A DNA stretch of 64,000 nucleotides from a bacterium (GCA_030697795.1 JAUYOV010000004.1:77886-141885), one strand, 5' to 3'; shown: positions 4,939 to 57,962, counted from the stretch's first letter. Notes: generated from the sequence alone by a model not told the origin. Translations and numbers: made by a program.

Positions 4939-5478
4939 TTACTCTACGCTGACTGATCCTTTTGAATTTATATAAATATATTTGCAAAGCGTAATATCTT
5001 TTATACCGCAAAGAGTTATGGTGGCACTGGCCAAATCAAGTTCGCTTGTGTTTATGGCAGTTACAGGTAGGGGCGGAATAAAAAATATTTCTAAGGGGCT
5101 AGCCGGGCTAACCAAGCTTATTTGGCTAGCCGATAAAATAACGGTTGAAAGCAATATGTCGGAACCTGCATTATAAGCTTTATTTTCGTCACAATCGGCC
5201 ACCAAACGATATCTATCCGGCAAGGCTGTACTTAAAATTATACCAGAAGGCACAACTTTATTACCCAAGACCCCACAATCTTGTGCAATAGACGATAAAG
5301 CCATATTCTGAACTTTTCTTATTTCCTCGGCCAAACGCCTAGTCTCTAAGATAATTTTTCGCTGATCCGCTCCTTTATTGCCTCCGGTAATTACCATAGC
5401 CGACAAAAAACCAACTATACCTATAATTATAATTAACTCAATCAAGGTGAAACCGCTTGTTTTGAAATTCATATTCAT
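4939..5478 (-). CDS. type IV minor pilin / pseudopilin (FimT/GspH-like); tandem paralogue of 4284-4808
   Basis: MNMNFKTSGFTLIELIIIIG prepilin N-terminus. Its upstream 50 nt are duplicated at 4801-4850. Confidence 0.6.
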   Translation of the reverse strand: MNMNFKTSGFTLIELIIIIGIVGFLSAMVITGGNKGADQRKIILETRRLAEEIRKVQNMALSSIAQDCGVLGNKVVPSGIILSTALPDRYRLVADCDENKAYNAGSDILLSTVILSASQISLVSPASPLEIFFIPPLPVTAINTSELDLASATITLCGIKDITLCKYIYINSKGSVSVE

Positions 5479-5627
5479 AAAAATGACAAATGACTAAGCT
5501 CAAATTTCTAATCAAATCTAAATGACTAATGTCTAATGATTAAATTAAACTTGGCCTTTAGGCTTTGACATTTGACATTGATTAGTAATTAGAAATTAGG
5601 CATTTTTATACTTCACCTGCAACAAAA

Positions 5628-6383
5628 TTAAAACCATACCAACAATAGTTTCTCGTACCACCTTAAAACCGCGTCTCCCCACAAATACGCTACCCAAGCT
5701 CCAGTTATTAAAAATGGGCCAAATGGAATTTTACTTTTTAAATTAACCAAGCGAAATATTAAAAGAGGTATGCCTACGGCCGAACCCAAGATATAAGCAA
5801 ACAAAAGCCCAATTAAACCCACTGGCCAGCCCAGCCATAAACCCAAAAATAAACCCAATTTGGCATCCCCGCCGCCGACCCATTTCCCTTTTGAAAGAAA
5901 ATATTGCGCAAAGAAAAAGGAAAATATAACCAGCGCCATCAATATATTATTTTCAAAATTCTCTACTTGAAAAAACCATAAGCCAAAAACAACCCATATT
6001 GCACCTAAAAAGATAGATCCATTTAAAATTATTAAATTTTTAAGATCGTAAACAAATATAAAGACTGACAATAAAAATATTCCAGCAAGCCAAATAAATT
6101 CCGCGCCATTAAATTTTGAAGCTAAAAAATATAAGCCTAAACCAGAAACCAATTCTATTAACGGATACTGCCAACTTATCTTTTTATTACAATAACGGCA
6201 TTTGCCCAATAAAAAGATAAAACTTAAAACCGGAATCAAATCTAGAAAACCCAACTTATGCCCGCACTTAACACATTCCGATCTTTCAAAAGAAATATTC
6301 TTATTTCTGGGAATTCGCCAAAGCAGAGCATTTATAAAACTGCCTCCAATCAAACCAAGAACCAGAGCATACAACTTTATCAT
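5628..6383 (-). CDS. pilD: prepilin peptidase (A24 family)
   Basis: Cys tetrad CVKCGH...CRYCNK and the polytopic membrane profile typical of PilD. Confidence 0.85.
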   Translation of the reverse strand: MIKLYALVLGLIGGSFINALLWRIPRNKNISFERSECVKCGHKLGFLDLIPVLSFIFLLGKCRYCNKKISWQYPLIELVSGLGLYFLASKFNGAEFIWLAGIFLLSVFIFVYDLKNLIILNGSIFLGAIWVVFGLWFFQVENFENNILMALVIFSFFFAQYFLSKGKWVGGGDAKLGLFLGLWLGWPVGLIGLLFAYILGSAVGIPLLIFRLVNLKSKIPFGPFLITGAWVAYLWGDAVLRWYEKLLLVWF

Positions 6384-16777: not shown

Positions 16778-16885
16778 AAATAAAATAGGTTTCCTTGTTA
16801 AAATTATAGCACTATTCCTAAATAAACTTAGGTTACGCGGTTATCCCCAATAGTAAAATTGATGGTATTAGCATATTTTTAAAGC

Positions 16886-17548
16886 ATGATGATATCAAAG
16901 AAGATTGATTCTCTATTATTTCCGTCATTTTGCATAAACTGCAAAAGCGATACACCCGAAGAACCGCCGAGTTTGCGCTGGCTATGTTTAAACTGCCATA
17001 GGTTATTGATAACTAAATGGGAAAAAGTTTCTTTTAAGCCAGATATTAGCGAAAGCTATTATATTTTTGATTACCAAAAAGATAAGCTAGCTAAAAAACT
17101 AATTCATACACTAAAATACGATTTTGTTAAAGAAATCGCCGATACTTTTAATGTAGGTATAGAAAGCGAGCGTATTAATTTTAGAAGGCTAGTGTTTGAT
17201 TTTATTGTGCCGGTTCCCTTACATAGACGACGCTTAAAAGAACGGGGATTTAACCAGAGCGAATTAATTGCTAAAAAAATTAGCGAGATAACAGAAAAAC
17301 CAATAATTGATAATATTTTAAAAAGGAAAAAATACCGTAGGCCCCAAATGGAAGTTAAAAACCGCGAAGCTAGAATAAAAAACACTCAAAATATATTTGA
17401 GTGTGTCCAACACCAGGTGTTGGACAATAAAGTAGTTTTGCTGATAGACGATGTGGCTACAACTGGCGCTACCTTAAAAGAATGTGCCCGCGTTTTAAAA
17501 AACGCAGGCGCACGTAGTATTTTGTCGTTTACACTGGCGCAGGATTAA
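16886..17548 (+). CDS. comFC: competence protein ComFC (phosphoribosyltransferase-like)
   Basis: N-terminal Zn-ribbon (CINCKS...CLNCH) and PRTase motif LLIDDVATTGATL. Confidence 0.8.
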   Translation: MMISKKIDSLLFPSFCINCKSDTPEEPPSLRWLCLNCHRLLITKWEKVSFKPDISESYYIFDYQKDKLAKKLIHTLKYDFVKEIADTFNVGIESERINFRRLVFDFIVPVPLHRRRLKERGFNQSELIAKKISEITEKPIIDNILKRKKYRRPQMEVKNREARIKNTQNIFECVQHQVLDNKVVLLIDDVATTGATLKECARVLKNAGARSILSFTLAQD

Positions 17549-17580
17549 AAAAGAGGCGGTTTGTTTTCCGCCTCCTATCA
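17549..17580 (-). terminator. hairpin gaggcggtttgttttccgcctc followed by a T-run on the minus strand (terminates ORF 17594-18052)
   Basis: seen directly in sequence. Confidence 0.45.
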
Positions 17581-17593
17581 ACTTGGATACTTT

Positions 17594-18052
17594 TTAGGGC
17601 TCAGTATACACACCTTGGGGATAGCGCTCTGACTGAAAAAAAGGAACCGGCATCTCACACTCTTCTGCATGAACTAATTGCGCCGCTCGAGTAATGAGGG
17701 TAGAAGCAATCAATGCCACTGGACGGTGAAGATAAATAAATCCCCTTCGGAATTCCACTTTCATCATATCAAACATTCTACAACCAGATCCATAGCCCCA
17801 TACACCAGTGTTCTGGGGACCAGCCGTTATACATAATTCCCAACTATTGAGCCCCTCTTGACCTAAAGGAGCAGAACATAAAATAAAATGCTTTAGTTCT
17901 TTTTCATCGCAAACAGCTATAATGCCTAACTCTTCTGCTAGTTCCCGAACCCGATAATGTCCATAAAAAATACGCTCGTATTCCTGTCCCACTCCTTGTT
18001 TTTCGGAAAACTCCTCAAAAAGCATCTTGGGAATATCTGTTATAGAATACAC
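17594..18052 (-). CDS. orphan hypothetical protein, cassette A (GTG start, AAGGAG RBS)
   Basis: Higher GC than its flanks. Its leader and hairpin are shared with ORF 18360-18569. Confidence 0.4.
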   Translation of the reverse strand: MYSITDIPKMLFEEFSEKQGVGQEYERIFYGHYRVRELAEELGIIAVCDEKELKHFILCSAPLGQEGLNSWELCITAGPQNTGVWGYGSGCRMFDMMKVEFRRGFIYLHRPVALIASTLITRAAQLVHAEECEMPVPFFQSERYPQGVYTEP

Positions 18053-18170
18053 GGCTATATTCTCCTTGTTTAAAATGAAAAAACTATCCTTTTCTGTTTA
18101 CCAACAAAATACCATCTCCAACCATACCCGTCAATTCAACTTAGCATGAGCTTGCGATCGCAAGCTCGGG

Positions 18171-18317
18171 TGTGTCCAACACCAGGTGTTGGACACTAAA
18201 GTAATTTTGCTGGTGGACGATGTGGCCACCACCGGTGCCACATTAAAAGAGTGCGCCCGCGTTTTAAAAAACGCGGGCGCAGATAGAATATTGTCGTTTA
18301 CATTGGCGCAGGATTAA
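18171..18317 (+). pseudogene. duplicated 3' end of comFC (approx. 147 nt, ~90% identical to 17401-17548)
   Basis: Direct alignment; the fragment encodes ...VQHQVLDTKVILLVDDVATTGATLKECARVLKNAGADRILSFTLAQD*. Confidence 0.75.
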
Positions 18318-18359
18318 AAAGGGATTGCCGTCTTTTTGGCAACCCCCTAGGTTTTACTT

Positions 18360-18569
18360 CTAGCCGTCACCGCGGCAGTCAGGGCAACACTGTTGATCGT
18401 CTAGATGCTCGACACGAATTGCGCGTCCGCATCCTCCTTTGCAACGCTTGGCAAAACGGCTGATCAGCAGAAATCTTTCATCTGCTAATTCATTTTCGCC
18501 AAGCCATTGATTTTTGCTCTGTGCTGGCGACTGTTCATTACTCGTTGGTTGCCTAGTCAAATGACCCAT
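18360..18569 (-). CDS. orphan small Cys-rich protein, cassette B (zinc-ribbon-like CxxxC...CCPDC)
   Basis: aaaAAGGAGG RBS 6 nt before the ATG; GC about 50%; terminator hairpin downstream at 18318-18345. Confidence 0.4.
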   Translation of the reverse strand: MGHLTRQPTSNEQSPAQSKNQWLGENELADERFLLISRFAKRCKGGCGRAIRVEHLDDQQCCPDCRGDG

Positions 18570-18771
18570 ACTTGGCCTCCTTTTTTAGGTTTAAAAAACT
18601 ATCCTCTGCCGTTCCCCAAAAAACTACCACCTCCAACCCCAGCCGTCAAATAGATATACCGAGATAGCGATCGCTATCTCGGTATATACTAAATTTTATT
18701 TTTTATTATTTTTTTCTGTCCAACACCTGGTGTTGGACAATAAAGTAGTTTTACAAAATCGGGACATTGTT

Positions 18772-20909
18772 CTATTTCTTTCTTCCCGAGATTATTTCTT
18801 CTGCAACATTTCTTGGTACTTCTTCATAGTGAGAGAACTCCATCGTATAAGACGCTCGGCCTTCGGAAAGAGAACGTAACTGCGTGGAATAACCAAACAT
18901 TTCTGACAAAGGCACTTTAGCGTCTATAACTTTTAAAGCCGAATCGCCCACCGCGCCAGAACCGCCCCGAGCGGTCATTTGTTCTATGCGAGCGCGCTTA
19001 GAAGATAAATCGCCGGTAACTTCGCCCAAAAACTTTTCGGGTACAATAACTTCTACTTCATAATAGGTTCCAGCAAAACGGGACTGGCTCTTTTAGCGCC
19101 TTCCTGAAAAGCCATACTGCCCGCAATTTTAAAAGCCATTTCCGAAGAGTCTACATCGTGGTAAGAACCATCATAAAGCGTAACTTTAACATCTACCACG
19201 GGGTAACCCGCCATTACGCCCTTATCTTTTGATTCCTTGATGCCTTTTTCAACCGCTGGAATAAATTCTTGAGGAATAGCACCGCCTTTAATGGCATCAA
19301 CAAATTCAAAACCACCGCCACGAGGTAACGGTTCCACTCTTAAACGCACATGGCCATATTGACCACGGCCACCCGACTGGCGAATATATTTGCCTTCGGC
19401 TTCGGCTTCGGCTTTTACAGTTTCTTTATAAGCCACCTGCGGCCGGCCCACATTGGCGTCTACTTTAAATTCCCGTTTCATTCGGTCTACGATAATTTCT
19501 AAATGAAGCTCGCCCATACCGGCAATTAAAGTGTCGCCAGTTTCTTCATCGCCTTTTATTCTAAAGGTTGGATCTTCATCGGCTAGCCTGTGTAACGCCA
19601 AACCCATTTTTTCTTGATCGGCTTTGGTTTTAGGTTCAATCCGCACAGATATAACCGGTTCGGGAAAAACTATTTGTTCTAAAATTATTGGCTGAGCTTC
19701 ATCGCAGAGCGTGTCGCCGGTTTTGGTATATTTTAAACCAACGGCCGCACCGATTTCACCAGCAAAAATTTCTTTAACATCTTCGCGGTGGTTAGCGTGC
19801 ATTCTTAAAATACGGCCTATTCTTTCTTTTTGGTTTTTATTTACGTTTAAAACATAAGAACCCGATTCTAACTTTCCGGAATATACTCTAAAAAAAGTTA
19901 GCTGGCCCACAAATGGATCGCTCGCCACTTTAAAAGCTAAACTCGAAAACGGAGTTTCATCTTTAGCTTCACGCTCTTCTTCGGTATTGGTTTTTGGATT
20001 AACACCTTTTACCGGTGGCAAATCGGATGGGCTGGGTAAATAATACAAAACTGCGTCCAACATAAACTGCACACCTTTATTTTTTAGAGCTGAACCACAC
20101 AAAACTGGAATAATTTGGCCAGAAATTGTAGCTTCGCGCAAAGCTTTTCTTAATTCGGCTAAATTTGGTTTTTCGCCAGCCAAGTAGCGTTCCATTAAAG
20201 CATCATCGGTTTCAACAATTTTTTCTACAAGTTCGGCGTGGTATTTTTCGGTCTCCGCTTTTAAGTTTTCTGGGATTTCTATTTCTACAATTGTTTCACC
20301 ATGTTCGCCTTCAAAATTGTAGGCCTTCATTTTTATTAAATCTATAATACCTTCAAAATTTTCTTCTAGGCCGATGGGAATTTGTATCCTGACAGCTTTG
20401 TCGGTTAACCTATCTAAAATAGAAGCGTAAGAACGCTCAAAAGAAGCTCCCATACGGTCTAGCTTGTTTATAAAACAAACCCTAGGCACTTTATATTTAT
20501 CGGCTTGGCGCCACACAGTTTCGGATTGAGGTTCTACACCGGCCACGCCATCAAACACAACCACAGCACCATCTAGCACTCTTAAAGATCTTTCTACTTC
20601 CACGGTAAAATCCACGTGCCCAGGCGTATCTATAATATTGATACGCATTTCTTTATCTTTATTTTTTGAACCTAATACCCTATCTTCGCTTGGTGTCCAA
20701 AAACAAGTTGTAGCGGCTGCGGTAATGGTAATACCGCGTTCTTGTTCCTGTTCCATCCAGTCCATAATAGCTTCGCCTTCATGAACTTCGCCAATTTTAT
20801 GAGAAACGCCGGTGTAAAACAAAACACGCTCGGAAACAGTTGTTTTTCCGGCATCAATGTGAGCCACAATACCGATATCGCGAGTGCGTTCTATGGGATA
20901 ATCTCTCAT
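18772..20909 (-). CDS. fusA: elongation factor G, interrupted by an apparent -1 frameshift at about 19050-19056 (two ORFs: 19053-20909 and 18772-19029)
   Basis: The N-terminal part (618 aa) ends ...LLEPIMK*. The next frame continues [27 protein letters not shown]..., which is the conserved EF-G C-terminus. The observed ATGAAGTAGAAG should read ATGAAGGTAGAAG. Confidence 0.85.
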
Positions 20910-22106: not shown

Positions 22107-22215
22107 GGGCTTTCGTACACCGAGCATACGATCGTAAGCTCGGTGTATATATCCAAATAATGTAAAAAATAAAAAAAGATAATAGTAATTAACTAAAAAA
22201 CAAGGTCAAGATACT

Positions 22216-22943: not shown

Positions 22944-23162
22944 ATGGTTTGTCCAACATGTAAGAAAACCAGTGGTTTTAGAATCAAACGCGTATTGTTA
23001 CGCGGTCATTATAATCCAACCGTAAAACAAAAACAGCACCCTAACCTACAATGGGTTCGTATTGGCATAGGAAAAAGAATTAAAGTTTGCGCCAGCTGTT
23101 TAAAAGCTTCTCAAAAGAATCCAAATTATTTTAGAAAAATAGCCCCAAAGTTGTATAAGTAA
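22944..23162 (+). CDS. rpmB: 50S ribosomal protein L28 (Zn-ribbon variant CPTC...CASC)
   Basis: HPNLQWVRIGIGKRIKVCASCLKA aligns with the L28 core ANLQKVRILVNGK... Confidence 0.65.
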   Translation: MVCPTCKKTSGFRIKRVLLRGHYNPTVKQKQHPNLQWVRIGIGKRIKVCASCLKASQKNPNYFRKIAPKLYK

Positions 23163-23200
23163 AAAAATATCCCGACACCAGTGTCGGGATATTTTTTGTT
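23161..23200. terminator. bidirectional intrinsic terminator (atcccgacaccagtgtcgggat flanked by A/T runs)
   Basis: 10-bp perfect stem with a T-run on both strands. It serves rpmB on the plus strand and the tRNA on the minus strand. Confidence 0.6.
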
Positions 23201-44602: not shown

Positions 44603-47405
<2,803 letters not shown>

Positions 47406-47409
<4 letters not shown>

Positions 47410-47864
47410 TTAAATAAGTTAAATCGGTAAAAATTGGTTTCCACCAAGTTAAACCCCATTGCTTGATAGAGTTTATTAGCCTCTTCTCTAACCGGGTTAG
47501 TACGTAAACTCAAATGGCGAGCCCTTTTTTGATGGGCTAATTTTATGCCCACCTCCATAAGTAAACGACCTACCCCCCACTTCCGATAGGGCTTATCAAT
47601 CACTAAATCTTCTGACCAGGCAATCAAACCTGTTGGTATTTTTACAAAATAGACACTCAAAACACCGATTATTTTTTCTTGATTTTTGCTAACTTTGCCA
47701 ACTGCTACTATAAAAAATAAATGTTCTTGATTAAGCATTTCTTTGTATTCTGTCATGGTTATGTGTTTAGGTGAAACTTTAGTCAAGCTCATTTGAGAAA
47801 TCAAGTTATTGATATCCACCAGTTCACGCTCTTTGGCTTTTTTAATTATTTTAATTTTTACCAT
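47406..47864 (-). CDS. GNAT acetyltransferase, paralogue 1
   Basis: RKWGVGRLLME acetyl-CoA binding motif. Confidence 0.75.
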
Positions 47865-47865
47865 T

Positions 47866-49230
47866 TTATTTTTGCGATAAAAAACATCTTTCTAGTAAAT
47901 CCACACTTCTTTTGTAGGATAATCCGTCAATAAACTCAACATACCGATCAACGATTTTCTTCCGGTGGCCGCTATCTAATTTTGGACTTTCTAAATATAA
48001 GCTGATTAGTTTTGGCAAATCATCATCTATTTTAACCAATCGAATCGCACCACTTTGATAAATTGGCCGATAATGATCGAAGTCGTAGGCCAGAGCATAA
48101 ACACCTAAGTAACCAATGTTAATAATTGGCTTATCAAAAATACAGGCTTCAATAGAGATAGTTGAAGCATAATTAATATTTAGATCAGTGTACTTAAGTG
48201 AATATTTTAAATTTAAAAGATCTTGATAATTCATTTCTACTCGTCCAGGTACCACCTCTCGACCAGCCATTTCAATGTAAAAATTCGGCAACCCCGTAAA
48301 TTCGGTGTAATTGCCTGGCAGATCTAATGGATGAAGCCGAACAAAAATATTAACATAGGGAATAACTTTTTTCTTTCGAAGCTCAATTAAATCATAGATA
48401 TATTTTTTCTGGAAAGGATAGGCCTTTGTTACGGTAGTATATAAAACTGTAGGATATTTTGGATCCAACCCTTTCGATTTTATAAAGTCGGCCCGAGTTG
48501 GTTCAGATTCTTCTTTTTTAAAATATGGGTCAAAACGCGGTGTGCCTGAAACAAAAACTTGATTCTCTGGATAATTATGGATTGTCTCCGCTTCATGTTT
48601 CATAATTCCATTCCAAGGGATCAAGAAATCAGCTTTACGAATATGTTTAGAATTCATGGTTAAATTATCCCAACTAAAATTAACCGCCACAGTGGATAAA
48701 CCCAGGCGTTTTGACAAAAGAATTATCTCTGCCTCCCAAGGATCAAAACCCGGAGTAGCCGTAATAACCAACTTCGGTCGATATTGTTTTATCAGCGACC
48801 GAAAAAAAACTGAATTCGGCAAAACCATAGCTTCTATAGCCGTAAAAAAATTCACGGTAAGAAACCTTGAAAAAGGTAAACCTATAGTTCTAAACAAACG
48901 TCTCTTCCAATTATTTTTATAATTTGGCCGCTTATAAAAATGCTGAGCGGAAGCTAAATAATCAAATTCATTTACCCAACATATCCTTAAAAATTTAAAC
49001 ACACTCCAAAATTTTGGATTCTCCAACTGCCTCTGAACATAGACAGTATCGGCGGATTGATAATATTGATCCGCCTTATTCTGACCCAAAAAAGGAGTTA
49101 AAACTATAACCCTATACTTAGATGCAAGATATTCAATATATCTTGTCCGCAAAAGATCAGTAGCAAAAACATAATTAGGCACAGCCAGAAACACCGTATT
49201 CTTCATAGTAATTAAACTCAATAAAGGCAA
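47866..49230 (-). CDS. CDP-polyol phosphotransferase, TagF-like, paralogue 2
   Basis: FSWDNLT, GTPRFD, ASTISIEACIFDKP. Confidence 0.65.
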   Translation of the reverse strand: MPLLSLITMKNTVFLAVPNYVFATDLLRTRYIEYLASKYRVIVLTPFLGQNKADQYYQSADTVYVQRQLENPKFWSVFKFLRICWVNEFDYLASAQHFYKRPNYKNNWKRRLFRTIGLPFSRFLTVNFFTAIEAMVLPNSVFFRSLIKQYRPKLVITATPGFDPWEAEIILLSKRLGLSTVAVNFSWDNLTMNSKHIRKADFLIPWNGIMKHEAETIHNYPENQVFVSGTPRFDPYFKKEESEPTRADFIKSKGLDPKYPTVLYTTVTKAYPFQKKYIYDLIELRKKKVIPYVNIFVRLHPLDLPGNYTEFTGLPNFYIEMAGREVVPGRVEMNYQDLLNLKYSLKYTDLNINYASTISIEACIFDKPIINIGYLGVYALAYDFDHYRPIYQSGAIRLVKIDDDLPKLISLYLESPKLDSGHRKKIVDRYVEFIDGLSYKRSVDLLERCFLSQK

Positions 49231-55830: not shown

Positions 55831-56153
55831 AATGCCATAGCTATCGCATGTTTTTTAGTGTGCGACAAAGATATTAAAAACTTGCCTTTTTGACCTTTAA
55901 CTTTTGCGCTGGGAACACCGTCTTGGCTGCTAGTAATTCCTATGTCGATCAAATCTTTTAATCTTAAGCCGACTGCTTTAATAATAGCTTCCTTAACTGC
56001 AAAACGCACAGCAAAATGGGGGTAGGGATCGACTTTAGACAAACAATAATTTATTTCAGCAAAAGTAAAAATCTTTTTATAAAAAGACTGATTGCTTTTA
56101 TACGGCAATTTTCTAAAGCGGCCAACTTCTTCAATATCTATACCTATTTCCAT
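55818..56153 (-). CDS. acpS: 4'-phosphopantetheinyl transferase (holo-ACP synthase, AcpS type)
   Basis: GIDIEEV...FAVKEAIIKA motifs in a 111 aa protein. Confidence 0.75.
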   Translation of the reverse strand: MEIGIDIEEVGRFRKLPYKSNQSFYKKIFTFAEINYCLSKVDPYPHFAVRFAVKEAIIKAVGLRLKDLIDIGITSSQDGVPSAKVKGQKGKFLISLSHTKKHAIAMALWLN

Positions 56154-56602
56154 GGTAAATTTATTCTGTAAAAATTGGTTTCCTTCTTTATAAAGCCCAT
56201 ACTTATATACATAGCATTGGACTCTATTCTAACTGGGTTAGTCCGAACACTGATGTGTTTGGCCTTTTTCGCCATGGCAATCTCTATTAATTTCTCGGTC
56301 AATTTGCGTCCCAAACCTTTGCCACGATAGGCCATATCGACTACAACATCTTCAATAACTGAAATAGCCCCCGTAGGAATATAAACTAAATACACAGTGG
56401 CCATAGCAATAATTCTGGATAACTTTTGGCTAGAATCAACAACCGTAACAAGATAAACATTATTTTGTTTCAGTAAACGCTTGAGTCTAGCGGGCGTAAG
56501 AAGTTTGGGAGGCACGCTTGAAAGCGCCAACTGTGGCAGAAGTTGGTTGATATCTTGAAGAACCTTTGTGCTAAACTTTCTTAAAATTTGTATTTTAAAC
56601 AT
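56144..56602 (-). CDS. GNAT acetyltransferase, paralogue 2
   Basis: YRGKGLGRKLTE motif; collinear with 47406-47864. Confidence 0.75.
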   Translation of the reverse strand: MFKIQILRKFSTKVLQDINQLLPQLALSSVPPKLLTPARLKRLLKQNNVYLVTVVDSSQKLSRIIAMATVYLVYIPTGAISVIEDVVVDMAYRGKGLGRKLTEKLIEIAMAKKAKHISVRTNPVRIESNAMYISMGFIKKETNFYRINLPWK

Positions 56603-56609
56603 ATTTATT

Positions 56610-57962
56610 TTAGCTAAGCCGTTTTATTAAAAAATCAGCTACTCGTCTGCCGGCTTGGCCATCAACACTTAAACATTGTGAACTAACTAATTTCCTCCTA
56701 CCTTCATTATCTAATCTGGGATCATCTAAATAGTTATTCAACCATTTTACTAACTCGTTTTCGTTATTGGCTAAACGAACCCCCCCAGTTTTTAAAATAA
56801 ATTGATAGTGAGCTACTTTATAAGCCCATAAAACAAAATTCATGGGATGGATCTTTCGTTCAAATTTTATATTAATTATAGGCTTATCAAAAATAGCTGC
56901 GTCAATCATCATAGTTGAAGGATAACCCACTACCACATCCGAATAATAAAGAGTATCAGCCAAACTCCTAAAATCGGCAAAATTCATATCCCAATCCATA
57001 CCCCTTTTACTGGAAAATCTCTTACCGGGAATTTGGAATATAAACTTATTTTTATAACTCTTTTTAACCACCACTTCATCATTGGGAGGAAATCTAACAA
57101 TCACTTGACAAGGAAAATTCAAGCGTCCGCTAGATATTATTTCATCAAAAAACTCTAACATATCCCAATCGTCATCACTAGCTGTTCGGCCTACTGGTAA
57201 ATAGAGAATATTTTTTTTATCTCGACTTAAACCTAATTTTTCATAAAACTGATCGGCTGGTGTTCTTTTTTCTTTAAAATAATAATCAAAATGGGGCACA
57301 CCTACTGCAATTATTTGTCTTTCTGGAATATCAATGTATTTTACAGCATCATCTTTAACTAAATCATTATGAACCATCAACCAATCCGGCAGAAGTCTTA
57401 CCATGGCTCGAGCTGTTATTTTATCCCAGGAATTAATAAGGCCTACGGTAGTAACCCCCCTATGTTTAGCTTCACGGAGCATGGCAATTTCAACACCACC
57501 AAAAAGATGCGCCAAAAATACTAGACTGGGTTTATATTTATCAAAGTAAGAAGAGAAAAAATCTTCCGAAATAAGATACCAATCCAGCCAGCGTACAATC
57601 CGACGAAAAAACCTTCTAGCAAAAATACGATTAAAAAAGTATCGATATAGAAACTTAATAAAGCTTTTATCTGAGTTGAATAACAACTTTCTTTTAATAT
57701 CAATTGTGGCAGTGTTAATTAGGTTAAATTTGATAGCACCGAATAACTTTTGTAATAAACCTTTAGCAATATAGTTCTCAATTACTTGATAAACAATATT
57801 TGGACCATTAAATTCTTTCTTATAATATTCTTTCTTGGCTTCGCTATCAACAAATAAAACCAACCTGACATAAGGGGTCTTAGCCAATTTTTTATAAATG
57901 TCGGTGCGTAATATATTTCTAGCTTCTACACCTTGAAAAATTGTTACAAAAATAGTCTTCAC
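56610..57962 (-). CDS. CDP-polyol phosphotransferase, TagF-like, paralogue 3
   Basis: INSWDKIT, GVPHFD, STMMIDAAIFDKP. Confidence 0.65.
   Translation of the reverse strand: MKTIFVTIFQGVEARNILRTDIYKKLAKTPYVRLVLFVDSEAKKEYYKKEFNGPNIVYQVIENYIAKGLLQKLFGAIKFNLINTATIDIKRKLLFNSDKSFIKFLYRYFFNRIFARRFFRRIVRWLDWYLISEDFFSSYFDKYKPSLVFLAHLFGGVEIAMLREAKHRGVTTVGLINSWDKITARAMVRLLPDWLMVHNDLVKDDAVKYIDIPERQIIAVGVPHFDYYFKEKRTPADQFYEKLGLSRDKKNILYLPVGRTASDDDWDMLEFFDEIISSGRLNFPCQVIVRFPPNDEVVVKKSYKNKFIFQIPGKRFSSKRGMDWDMNFADFRSLADTLYYSDVVVGYPSTMMIDAAIFDKPIINIKFERKIHPMNFVLWAYKVAHYQFILKTGGVRLANNENELVKWLNNYLDDPRLDNEGRRKLVSSQCLSVDGQAGRRVADFLIKRLS

Follow-up and report, generated by a model that had tools for sequence, protein, structure and literature searches.

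In systems made of repetitive extragenic palindromes (REPs) and tyrosine transposases associated with them (RAYTs), a short palindrome flanks a gene for a Y1 transposase of the HUH class on both sides (PMC5581495, PMC3333891), the palindrome sequence and the enzyme lineage vary together, the gene keeps a conserved and apparently single-copy context, and extra palindromes are scattered in the genome. REP/RAYT is the closest known system to the one described here, which shares these traits, a single-copy context being suggested, and is centred on a 23-bp perfect palindrome (TGTCCAACACCWGGTGTTGGACA) found at the 3' end of comFC in a 64,000-nt stretch of bacterial DNA (GCA_030697795.1 JAUYOV010000004.1:77886-141885, hereafter the window; coordinates are whole-window positions unless a contig is named). 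It differs from REP/RAYT in that the palindrome, as found in bacteria of the candidate phyla radiation (CPR), is perfect over 23 bp and has neither a GTAG/CGTC head nor bulges, in that copies are few (three in 64 kb, all at one locus; one to three per metagenome-assembled genome, MAG) instead of many extragenic doublets, and in that some copies lie in frame inside essential genes (comFC, uvrA, fmt) and copies bracket gene-sized units. We hold with moderate confidence that this REP-like palindrome, long present in comFC, acted as a joining site at which two alleles of a variable slot were stacked in tandem. CPR bacteria (Patescibacteria) have tiny genomes with few recognised mobile elements, and gene shuffling among them is poorly known. 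A literature search found no paper linking RAYTs or REPINs with CPR bacteria, and a search by palindrome sequence returned unrelated primer matches only; the locus points to a REP/RAYT-like system apparently undescribed in this group, unusual for its perfect 23-mers, for its in-frame copies in essential genes and because two or more distant genomes have copies where gene-sized tandem rearrangements are joined.

Characterised IS200/IS605 ends are imperfect, non-identical subterminal hairpins at which guide/target motifs of 4-5 nt set the cleavage. Elements of about 0.73-0.75 kb on four contigs from other genomes (L005, L026, L027, L042), each with one Y1 tnpA gene between two hairpins, resemble these insertion sequences and palindrome-associated transposable elements (PATEs), which derive from them and lack the transposase. 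They differ in that no guide/target motif is definable at the palindromes and in that the CPR Y1 genes lie in fixed contexts and show no sign of multicopy transposition; the units of the window share only the palindrome with the L005 element. Single-strand "peel and paste" transposition would let any hairpin-to-hairpin segment move (PMC5027513).

With integrons and clusters of attC sites lacking integron-integrases (CALINs), the locus shares small single-gene units in one orientation, a recurring palindromic site and a typical cassette size of 0.5-0.8 kb, whereas it has no intI and no attI, one of its "cassettes" is an old resident gene, its units carry promoters and terminators, and the linked enzyme is of the HUH class. 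Integron attC sites measure 57-141 bp, are imperfectly palindromic and have extrahelical bases as well as R''/L'' and L'/R' boxes; the 23-bp site is far shorter and fully symmetric, with no L boxes and no bulges. A dif-like site spans 28 bp in an 11-6-11 layout and is recombined by XerC/D, whereas the layout here is 11-1-11 and no Xer-type gene was seen among the window open reading frames (ORFs) examined. As in islands and phages integrated at gene 3' ends, the target 3' end is duplicated, direct repeats mark the borders and comFC is intact, but there is no integrase, the insert measures only 583 bp, the part with the gene termed ORF152 below is present in relatives, and at the core of the repeat stands a perfect palindrome that goes with another class of enzyme. 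Enterobacterial REP duplications and F' formation likewise place palindromic repeats at tandem-duplication joins (PMC1428787); those involve imperfect REPs, short homology and identical duplicated DNA, whereas the genes in the two units here differ and one of the comFC ends has the look of an import.

The palindrome-punctuated interval between comFC and fusA

The interval and its borders comprise the following features, given with the strand where one applies.

16886-17548, plus strand: comFC, 220 aa, phosphoribosyltransferase-type ComF (Pfam Pribosyltran, 1.9e-8; weak PRTase ComF-like match)
17401-17551, plus strand: comFC 3' end copy 1, the functional end
17404-17426: palindrome 1, central base A, inside comFC; predicted to fold as DNA into a 10-bp hairpin (3-nt loop, -9.9 kcal/mol)
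17486-17509: imperfect terminator-like hairpin in comFC copy 1, read on the minus strand
17551-17576, minus strand: intrinsic terminator of ORF152
17594-18052, minus strand: ORF152, conserved protein-coding gene, 152 aa, of an uncharacterised family
18053-18147, minus strand: leader 1, with -35 TTGACG (18134-18129), 17-nt spacer, -10 TATTTT (18111-18106), 5' untranslated region and AAGGAG
18148-18167: hairpin A, GAGCTTGCGATCGCAAGCTC, of the intergenic hairpin family GAG-N3-RCGATCGY-N3-CTC
18170-18752: accreted unit, GTG and palindrome 2 through palindrome 3 and 13 nt, 583 bp
18173-18195: palindrome 2, central base A; with its flanks a 25-bp perfect palindrome (18172-18196)
18196-18320, plus strand: comFC 3' end copy 2, after palindrome 2, in frame and stop-free
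18252-18281: perfect palindrome with 14-nt arms in copy 2, terminator-like on the minus strand, -18.7 kcal/mol
18314-18345, minus strand: putative terminator-like hairpin with T-run 3' of ORF69, from direct reading of the sequence
18360-18569, minus strand: ORF69, small Cys4 zinc-ribbon-like protein; weak Pfam Zn_ribbon match
18570-18653, minus strand: leader 2, with -35 TTGACG (18649-18644), -10 TAGTTT (18626-18621) and AAGGAGG; paralogue of leader 1
18654-18687: hairpin B, 34-nt perfect palindrome
18717-18739: palindrome 3, central base T, polarity opposite to that of palindromes 1 and 2
18740-18752, plus strand: comFC remnant after palindrome 3, 13 nt, ATAAAGTAGTTTT
18772-20909, minus strand: fusA, convergent with comFC, the other border of the island

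The palindrome is built from 11-nt arms around a single central base, starts with TGT, ends with ACA and is open in all reading frames. Its three exact copies are present as a preliminary description of this DNA had claimed, the third being shifted by one base to 18717-18739. No further match to TGTCCAACACCWGGTGTTGGACA with up to three mismatches occurs in the 64 kb (0 expected, 100 shuffles) and no solitary 11-nt half-site anywhere in it, for which reason a reading as a DNA uptake sequence was rejected. The DNA hairpin predicted for the palindrome would be stable, with values from -9.7 to -11.7 kcal/mol. The window has 16 perfect palindromes whose arms reach 9 nt or more, and 6 of them fall within this 1.3 kb.

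Palindrome 1 lies in frame within the comFC coding sequence, where it is read as VQHQVLD. The second copy of the comFC 3' end that had been reported was found again, with its extent corrected to 151 nt and its identity to 88% (17401-17551 against 18170-18320). Neither a stop nor a frameshift is introduced by the 18 differences between the copies, 12 of which are at third codon positions, and copy 2 is nearest to the comFC of a relative, L022 (88.5%), closer than to copy 1; this suggests, on very few informative sites, that copy 2 may have been a working gene end until recently. Composition and distances suggest that copy 1 is the native end. The 13-nt remnant ATAAAGTAGTTTT is identical to copy 1 and not to copy 2, and homology to copy 1 is lost beyond it. 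Both comFC-derived fragments break at the foot of a palindrome, within 0-3 nt: homology of copy 2 begins 3 nt before palindrome 2, that of the third copy at palindrome 3, so that the association of the palindrome with every boundary of comFC homology stood up. As judged by the breaks in collinearity with the relatives L014 and L022, the extra DNA is limited to 18170-18752. The ends of this accreted unit form direct repeats of roughly 36 nt (18170-18208, 18714-18752); between palindromes 2 and 3 it contains comFC copy 2, a terminator, ORF69, leader 2, hairpin B and an AT-rich spacer, and the ORF69 unit was found at this locus only, with no occurrence at other sites. A Logan contig obtained independently (L025, run SRR13727529) matches window positions 16797-18683 at 100% identity over 1,887 bp; palindromes 1 and 2 lie within it together with both ORFs, so that more than one assembly shows the tandem order across these two palindromes.

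Read on the minus strand, both units have a common layout of a GCGATCGC-centred hairpin, leader, AAGGAG, ORF, terminator and comFC 3' end, in line with the module architecture described earlier except that the second hairpin is longer (18654-18687) than had been stated. The homologous leader cores (18062-18134 and 18577-18649) are 78% identical, with the pattern TTGACG-17 nt-TAnTTT followed by AAGGAG, and each leader resembles the other more than it does its orthologues in L014 and L022 (64-69%), so the second unit would stem from this lineage or a close relative. The flanks are paralogous (comFC 3' ends 85-88%, leaders 78%, hairpins of one family), and the unit centres, from ribosome-binding site to terminator, are unrelated. 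Because they are paralogous at both flanks and unrelated in the middle, the two units appear to be two alleles of one variable slot, set in tandem.

The relatives are two uncultured CPR species, represented by a contig from Hainich groundwater (L014) and a MAG labelled Candidatus Saccharibacteria (L022). In both, the gene order is rpsL, rpsG, fusA, the island, comFC (convergent), pilM, pilN/O and pilB, comFC orthologues are present, and leader, ORF152, terminator, comFC and pilM form one collinear block with the window at 76-78% nucleotide identity. L014 has a single unit, without a comFC repeat and without a perfect palindrome. At the orthologous 23-mer, comFC of L014 reads TGTCAAACATCCAACGTTGGACA (17/23 identical, same length, partly symmetric) and that of L022 TATTGAACACCGAGTGTTTGATA (16/23 identical, 8/11 self-complementary). 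Since a majority consensus of the window, L014 and L022 agrees with the canonical palindrome at no fewer than 20 of the 23 positions, we infer that the palindrome was already in comFC of their common ancestor. In L022 the interval holds a 72-nt comFC 3' fragment (5033-5105), which is separated by 20 nt from the stop of fusA, matches the functional comFC of that genome, 1.4 kb away, at 100% identity, and keeps a hairpin and T-run that could terminate fusA; after it comes an extra gene, the PaaX-like ORF203, between two copies of one hairpin. The insertion had been thought to sit exactly where tuf would follow fusA. However, tuf does not follow fusA in the window, L014 or L022, and nothing was displaced. 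Two candidates from this comparison were set aside: L015 as a truncated-comFC variant, being a coverage-1 contig full of homopolymer errors, and a "leader remnant" in the L014 spacer that would have implied a two-unit ancestral state, which was marginal (27-45 of 500 shuffles scored as high) and was left unused.

ORF152 has collinear homologues in L014 and L022 (76-82% amino acid identity), a dN/dS of 0.13-0.16 at dS of about 0.8-0.9, which indicates purifying selection, and a GC content of 42.5% with 0.33 at third codon positions (GC3), equal to fusA and pilM. Because of this collinearity, constraint and native composition we are much more confident than of the overall account that ORF152 is an old resident, inherited vertically, and not a recent cassette. 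ORF69, by contrast, has 50% GC and a GC3 of 0.43 against 37% GC for the window, and no orthologue at the fusA-comFC locus of L014 or L022. Of the view that both ORFs are GC-rich cargo, only the part on ORF69 was therefore upheld; ORF152 had been taken for an integrated cassette and is a conserved collinear gene in L014, where there is neither a perfect palindrome nor a comFC repeat; for this ORF, that is a finding which the preliminary description itself had named as overturning its reading. The island is flanked by comFC sequence and the ORF69 unit was added to it, as a comFC-bracketed island would have it, whereas ORF152 belongs to the locus.

Palindrome copies in other genomes and their Y1 transposase genes

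In exact-match scans, 13 more contigs, each either CPR or metagenomic without assignment, were found to carry the identical 23-mer, with one to three copies per MAG, several of them inside genes; no copy was found in viral contigs. The palindrome changes places from genome to genome: related MAGs have it, in frame, within fmt (L001, from the MAG of L022) and within uvrA, which is intact at 960 aa (L004/L006, JACQLN01) and has the same VQHQVLD reading, and also at varied intergenic sites. Beside the E. coli and B. subtilis homologues, the linker around the palindrome in comFC and uvrA looks normal in length, and the palindrome could have come there by insertion or by overwriting.

We are much more confident of the link between the palindrome and Y1 genes, which was observed in other genomes and not in the window, than of the part such an enzyme may have had in the joining. 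On L005, two canonical copies 727 bp apart flank a gene for a 222-aa Y1_Tnp protein (IS200-like; Pfam 2.8e-8), and on L011 two tandem copies lie just upstream of a Y1 homologue. Other lineages have other palindromes on each side of the Y1 gene: TGTTCAAAGCCWGGCTTTGAACA on L026, TGTTCAACACCWGGTGTTGAACA on L027/L030 (plus TGTGCAACACCTGGTGTTGCACA), TGTCAAACACCWGGTGTTTGACA on L042-L046 and GATGTTAATGTCGGACATTAACATC on L008/L009. In total, perfect palindromes stand beside six Y1 gene lineages and imperfect ones beside two more (L033, L036), and tandem doublets occur only beside transposase genes (L011, L027). Every Y1 lineage inspected has a 23-bp palindrome of the form TGT...ACA with one central base, and the differences between lineages are symmetric. 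Among 12 variants, both-side changes were counted at 7 of the 11 arm positions, 93.9% of cells were paired, and the covariation score was reached by none of 500 shuffles. No conserved flanking tetranucleotide or common flanking motif was found at the palindromes.

CPR bacteria have many members of the Y1 protein family (665 clusters at E ≤1e-5), and the genes for P0052, P0099, P0081 and P0029 have the same neighbours across many samples (PIF1 and PMM; RNase HII and dnaE; pheT; RF-1). By this measure the CPR Y1 genes look domesticated, apparently single-copy and RAYT-like, and a single-copy pattern has been described for domesticated RAYTs (PMC5581495), as opposed to insertion sequences that jump. 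The palindrome would then be either a REP-like cognate hairpin or a symmetric binding site of a CPR-wide IS200-type Y1 (HUH) family.

A second rearrangement with the palindrome at its joint is present on L005, where the palindrome-tnpA-palindrome segment lies at the junction of a 1.6-1.7 kb tandem duplication and a 95%-identical copy of the 3' end of a SIMPL gene stops no more than 2 nt from the palindrome. The breakpoint offsets (-3/+13 here, about -2/+12 on L005) were considered as a cleavage signature and dropped, the right boundary on L005 being too diverged. What is tandemly duplicated in this distant CPR genome, at L005 2238-7291, is a cassette resembling a diversity-generating retroelement (DGR), with a bAvd-like gene and pairs like template and variable repeats at 2764-2895/3223-3354 and 5232-5329/5672-5769. 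On L002 (500-3260; also L010), several small ORFs rich in Cys and a gene for a MazF-like toxin are set apart by a 168-nt repeat, in which the palindrome is accompanied by one more half-site and by a long compound hairpin. A piece of 27 nt occurs four times, once inverted; L002 looks like another array of palindrome-punctuated small genes. Inside the Y1 transposase coding sequence of L036/L041 (771-793) lies a near-palindrome, TGTTAAACACCGAGTGTTTAACA, whose CCGAG centre matches the L022 comFC site TATTGAACACCGAGTGTTTGATA, which hints that the comFC site of the L022 lineage may track a different palindrome subfamily.

Possible origins of the tandem units

In the account we favour, one palindrome copy would have stood in frame in comFC since before the split from L014 and L022, and the fusA-comFC interval would be a variable slot consisting of hairpin, promoter/leader, gene, terminator and comFC 3' end, with ORF152 as its resident occupant. 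A second version of the slot, with the same leader and comFC end and with the foreign-looking ORF69 and its own terminator, would have been joined in tandem, the joints falling at the palindrome foot and giving the order palindrome / unit / palindrome / unit / palindrome. Palindrome 3 and the 13-nt comFC remnant beside fusA could be left over from an earlier, similar event. For the joining, a Y1 transposase whose gene lies outside the window may have cut single-stranded DNA specifically at the palindrome and transferred the strand, and the donor may have been a palindrome-to-palindrome segment of the sister chromosome or of a close relative, possibly acquired via the adjacent competence machinery. 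Y1 enzymes bind hairpins in single-stranded DNA and cut and rejoin beside them (PMC3333891, PMC3479197, PMC5027513); such a transposase acting in trans appears to be the likeliest and most specific candidate for the joining, a point on which we are less confident. If palindromes 1 and 2 recombined with each other, 769 bp would be lost and comFC would stay intact, with copy 2 as its end.

Several observations weigh against this account. No Y1 transposase gene was found within the 64-kb window (tblastn), neither an excision circle nor an empty site was seen, and no donor strain turned up whose slot holds ORF69 by itself, the sole homologue of ORF69 being 57% identical and in an unrelated context. 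The direction of transfer rests on few sites, with four changes unique to copy 2, three of them at third positions (p ~0.1). The match to L025 ends at 18683, so that palindrome 3 is without independent assembly support. In L022 the comFC fragment, a 100% match to the comFC of that genome, ends elsewhere than at a palindrome, and hence not every duplication at this locus needs one. Identical 23-bp repeats 0.5-0.8 kb apart could also recombine without a dedicated enzyme, the perfect symmetry of the palindrome sets it apart from the hairpins of characterised IS200/IS605 ends and of E. coli REPs, which are imperfect and bulged, and the symmetric covariation fits a dimeric protein binding double strands equally well as it fits a hairpin.

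Passive recombination is a possible origin, although a doubtful one. Here unequal crossing-over or slippage between the comFC and fusA-side copies, at 23-bp direct repeats or fork-stalling hairpins, would have duplicated the unit, and homologous recombination with DNA of a relative, with leader and comFC end as arms, would later have swapped ORF152 and its terminator for ORF69 and its terminator. A tandem duplication between direct repeats would have precisely the topology seen here, the swapped segment is homologous on both flanks and the swap neat from ribosome-binding site to terminator, leaders 1 and 2 are each other's closest relatives, and the window has no transposase; REPs are also reported at enterobacterial duplication and F' junctions, as discussed in PMC1428787, citing Kofoid et al. 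2003, although REPs were not preferentially used in E. coli amplification junctions (PMC1428787). It accounts less well for the differences in copy 2, which are mostly at third positions and bring it nearer to the comFC of another species, unlike a pseudo-copy decaying in situ, for the central base of palindrome 3, which is inverted relative to palindromes 1 and 2, and for the unrelated case of L005, where the Y1 gene itself is at the duplication junction. That the comFC 3' fragments were retained as terminators of converging genes, with the palindrome boundaries incidental, we consider improbable as an explanation of the locus. Both comFC hairpins (18281-18252 and 17509-17486) are terminator-like on the minus strand, where a T-run follows, that of copy 2 is perfect (-18.7 kcal/mol), and the fusA-side fragment of L022 keeps exactly this hairpin and T-run. 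A hairpin in the 3' coding region of comFC could in this way terminate a converging gene, and terminator activity may help to explain the persistence of comFC fragments after ORF69 here and after fusA in L022. Such an explanation covers retention, however, and not origin or the palindrome breakpoints; moreover, ORF69 already has its own terminator-like hairpin, and the 13-nt remnant after palindrome 3 has no terminator.

The preliminary description had proposed repeated site-specific integration of the integron or IMEX type, that is, a tyrosine or serine recombinase (integron-integrase, Xer/IMEX or island type) inserting circular cassettes with replacement comFC 3' ends, which we regard as very unlikely. 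An island bracketed by comFC sequence with a regenerated functional gene would fit it, L022 also has a comFC fragment on the fusA side, and the palindrome contains RYYYAAC (GTCCAAC) and GTTRRRY (GTTGGAC) and can be read as 8-bp arms around a 7-bp overlap. However, the symmetric 23-bp site has neither the L boxes and extrahelical bases of attC nor the layout of dif (11-6-11), each unit has a promoter of its own, ORF152 is inherited vertically, the enzyme gene linked to the palindrome is always that of a Y1 HUH transposase and not of a tyrosine or serine recombinase, and viral contigs have no palindrome. As the earlier reading of the sequence had also noted, no recombinase is visible in the window: no such domain was detected in the neighbouring genes or in the ten unclear window ORFs that were scanned, the others being judged by eye from translations and Pfam hits. 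An assembly artefact, with strain variants collapsed or misjoined at the palindrome, is barely credible. Assemblies do break at these palindromes (one forms the end of L004 and of L006, and the first bases of L017-L021 and L025 fall within hairpins), the window fusA has at least one indel, and palindrome 3 lies outside the independent contig. Against a mis-assembly, which had been named as one way to overturn the arrangement, L025 reproduces palindromes 1 and 2 and both ORFs at 100% identity over its 1,887 bp, and the relatives L014 and L022 show the same kind of locus; only the part at palindrome 3 is without this check.

Tandem stacking of slot alleles at the palindrome could also be one instance of something wider, namely a CPR gene-cassette system built on an HUH (Y1) single-strand transposase and not on a tyrosine recombinase, which we think unlikely. 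In such a system a segment between two palindromes would leave as a single-stranded circle and be pasted beside another copy, targets would include the in-frame copies in comFC, uvrA and fmt, and single strands from competence uptake could be used; the fusA-comFC array and the duplicated DGR-like cassette of L005 would be two of its products. If a Y1 enzyme does join DNA at the palindromes, the locus offers a testable mechanism for the gain of small genes beside core genes in uptake-dependent organisms, and a function for domesticated transposases of the RAYT type, which is a long-standing question. If the enzyme is not involved, it is a clean natural example of palindrome-mediated tandem duplication with allele stacking.

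Encoded proteins, hairpins and other window features

ORF152 defines a conserved family of proteins of about 150 aa with a confident predicted fold and no known relative. Members span about 150-200 aa, share the motifs AGPxxxGxWAYGxG and YWExxRxP, and include 35 representatives (50% clustering) of remote relatives with full-length matches. The AlphaFold2 model is alpha+beta and reached a predicted local distance difference test (pLDDT) score of 93.9 with 29 remote homologues, compared with 34 with four sequences; it gave no significant structural match, and no match to ORF152 was found in Pfam, PADLOC, PHROG or PDB, including a profile search against PDB sequences. In the homologue of one species, a poly-T run counts nine residues in one assembly and seven in another (L014 5960-5975, L015 2100-2115), of which only T7 keeps the frame full-length, through sequencing error or slipped-strand variation. 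The only detectable homologue of ORF69, P0005, is 57% identical, keeps the four Cys positions and lies in an unrelated context. ORF152 and ORF69 have no detectable similarity, in keeping with what had been said of them. A toxin, defence or phage annotation of either was rejected, nothing having been found in Pfam, PADLOC or PHROGs (for ORF152 also PDB and structure search), and the suggestion of toxin/immunity or defence cargo found no support.

The hairpins centred on GATC belong to a family (GAG-N3-RCGATCGY-N3-CTC) in which the core is conserved and the N3 positions covary in a compensatory way. Besides hairpins A and B it was found at the following sites.

22122-22141: window, upstream of rpsL
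160-179, 5616-5635 and 5774-5793: L014
5166-5185 and 5805-5824: L022

GCGATCGC itself occurs only twice in the window. The outer arms of hairpin B match a hairpin after fusA in L014, its inner positions differing in a compensatory way. These are general intergenic hairpins, probably acting as terminators or insulators ahead of promoters. They had been listed as part of the cassettes, for which they are not specific, and a role as cassette recombination sites was rejected, the same family being present upstream of rpsL and elsewhere in L014. Short-read unitigs (L017-L021, L025) begin inside GATC hairpins. The leaders gave no Rfam match other than a chance snoRNA hit (E = 0.11).

One arm of palindrome 3, GTTGGACA, provides a -35-like TGGACA facing the ORF69 unit, followed after 18 nt by TAAAAT (18693-18722, minus strand). 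A similar -35/-10 pair, with about 16-17 nt to TATTAT as judged by eye, precedes the Y1 gene on L005 (5067-5119). From these motifs, the palindrome may double as an outward-facing promoter element.

In the window, fusA is split into ORFs of 618 and 85 aa by a 1-nt deletion in an A-run (19030-19055; ATGAAAGTAG in L014 and L022, ATGAAGTAG here), which is probably an assembly indel in an essential gene; other homopolymer errors in the window are possible. Beside ligA, at 582-1236, a Gp49/HigB-like toxin gene (874-1236) accompanies an XRE-type helix-turn-helix antitoxin gene (582-881). A large glycan-synthesis cluster contains three paralogous CDP-glycerol glycerophosphotransferase-like genes (46048-49230, 56144-57962), at least two of which have an adjacent small GNAT-like ORF. 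A further perfect palindrome with 17-nt arms, AAAAAATATCCCGACACCAGTGTCGGGATATTTTTT, at 23162-23197, is probably a bidirectional terminator.

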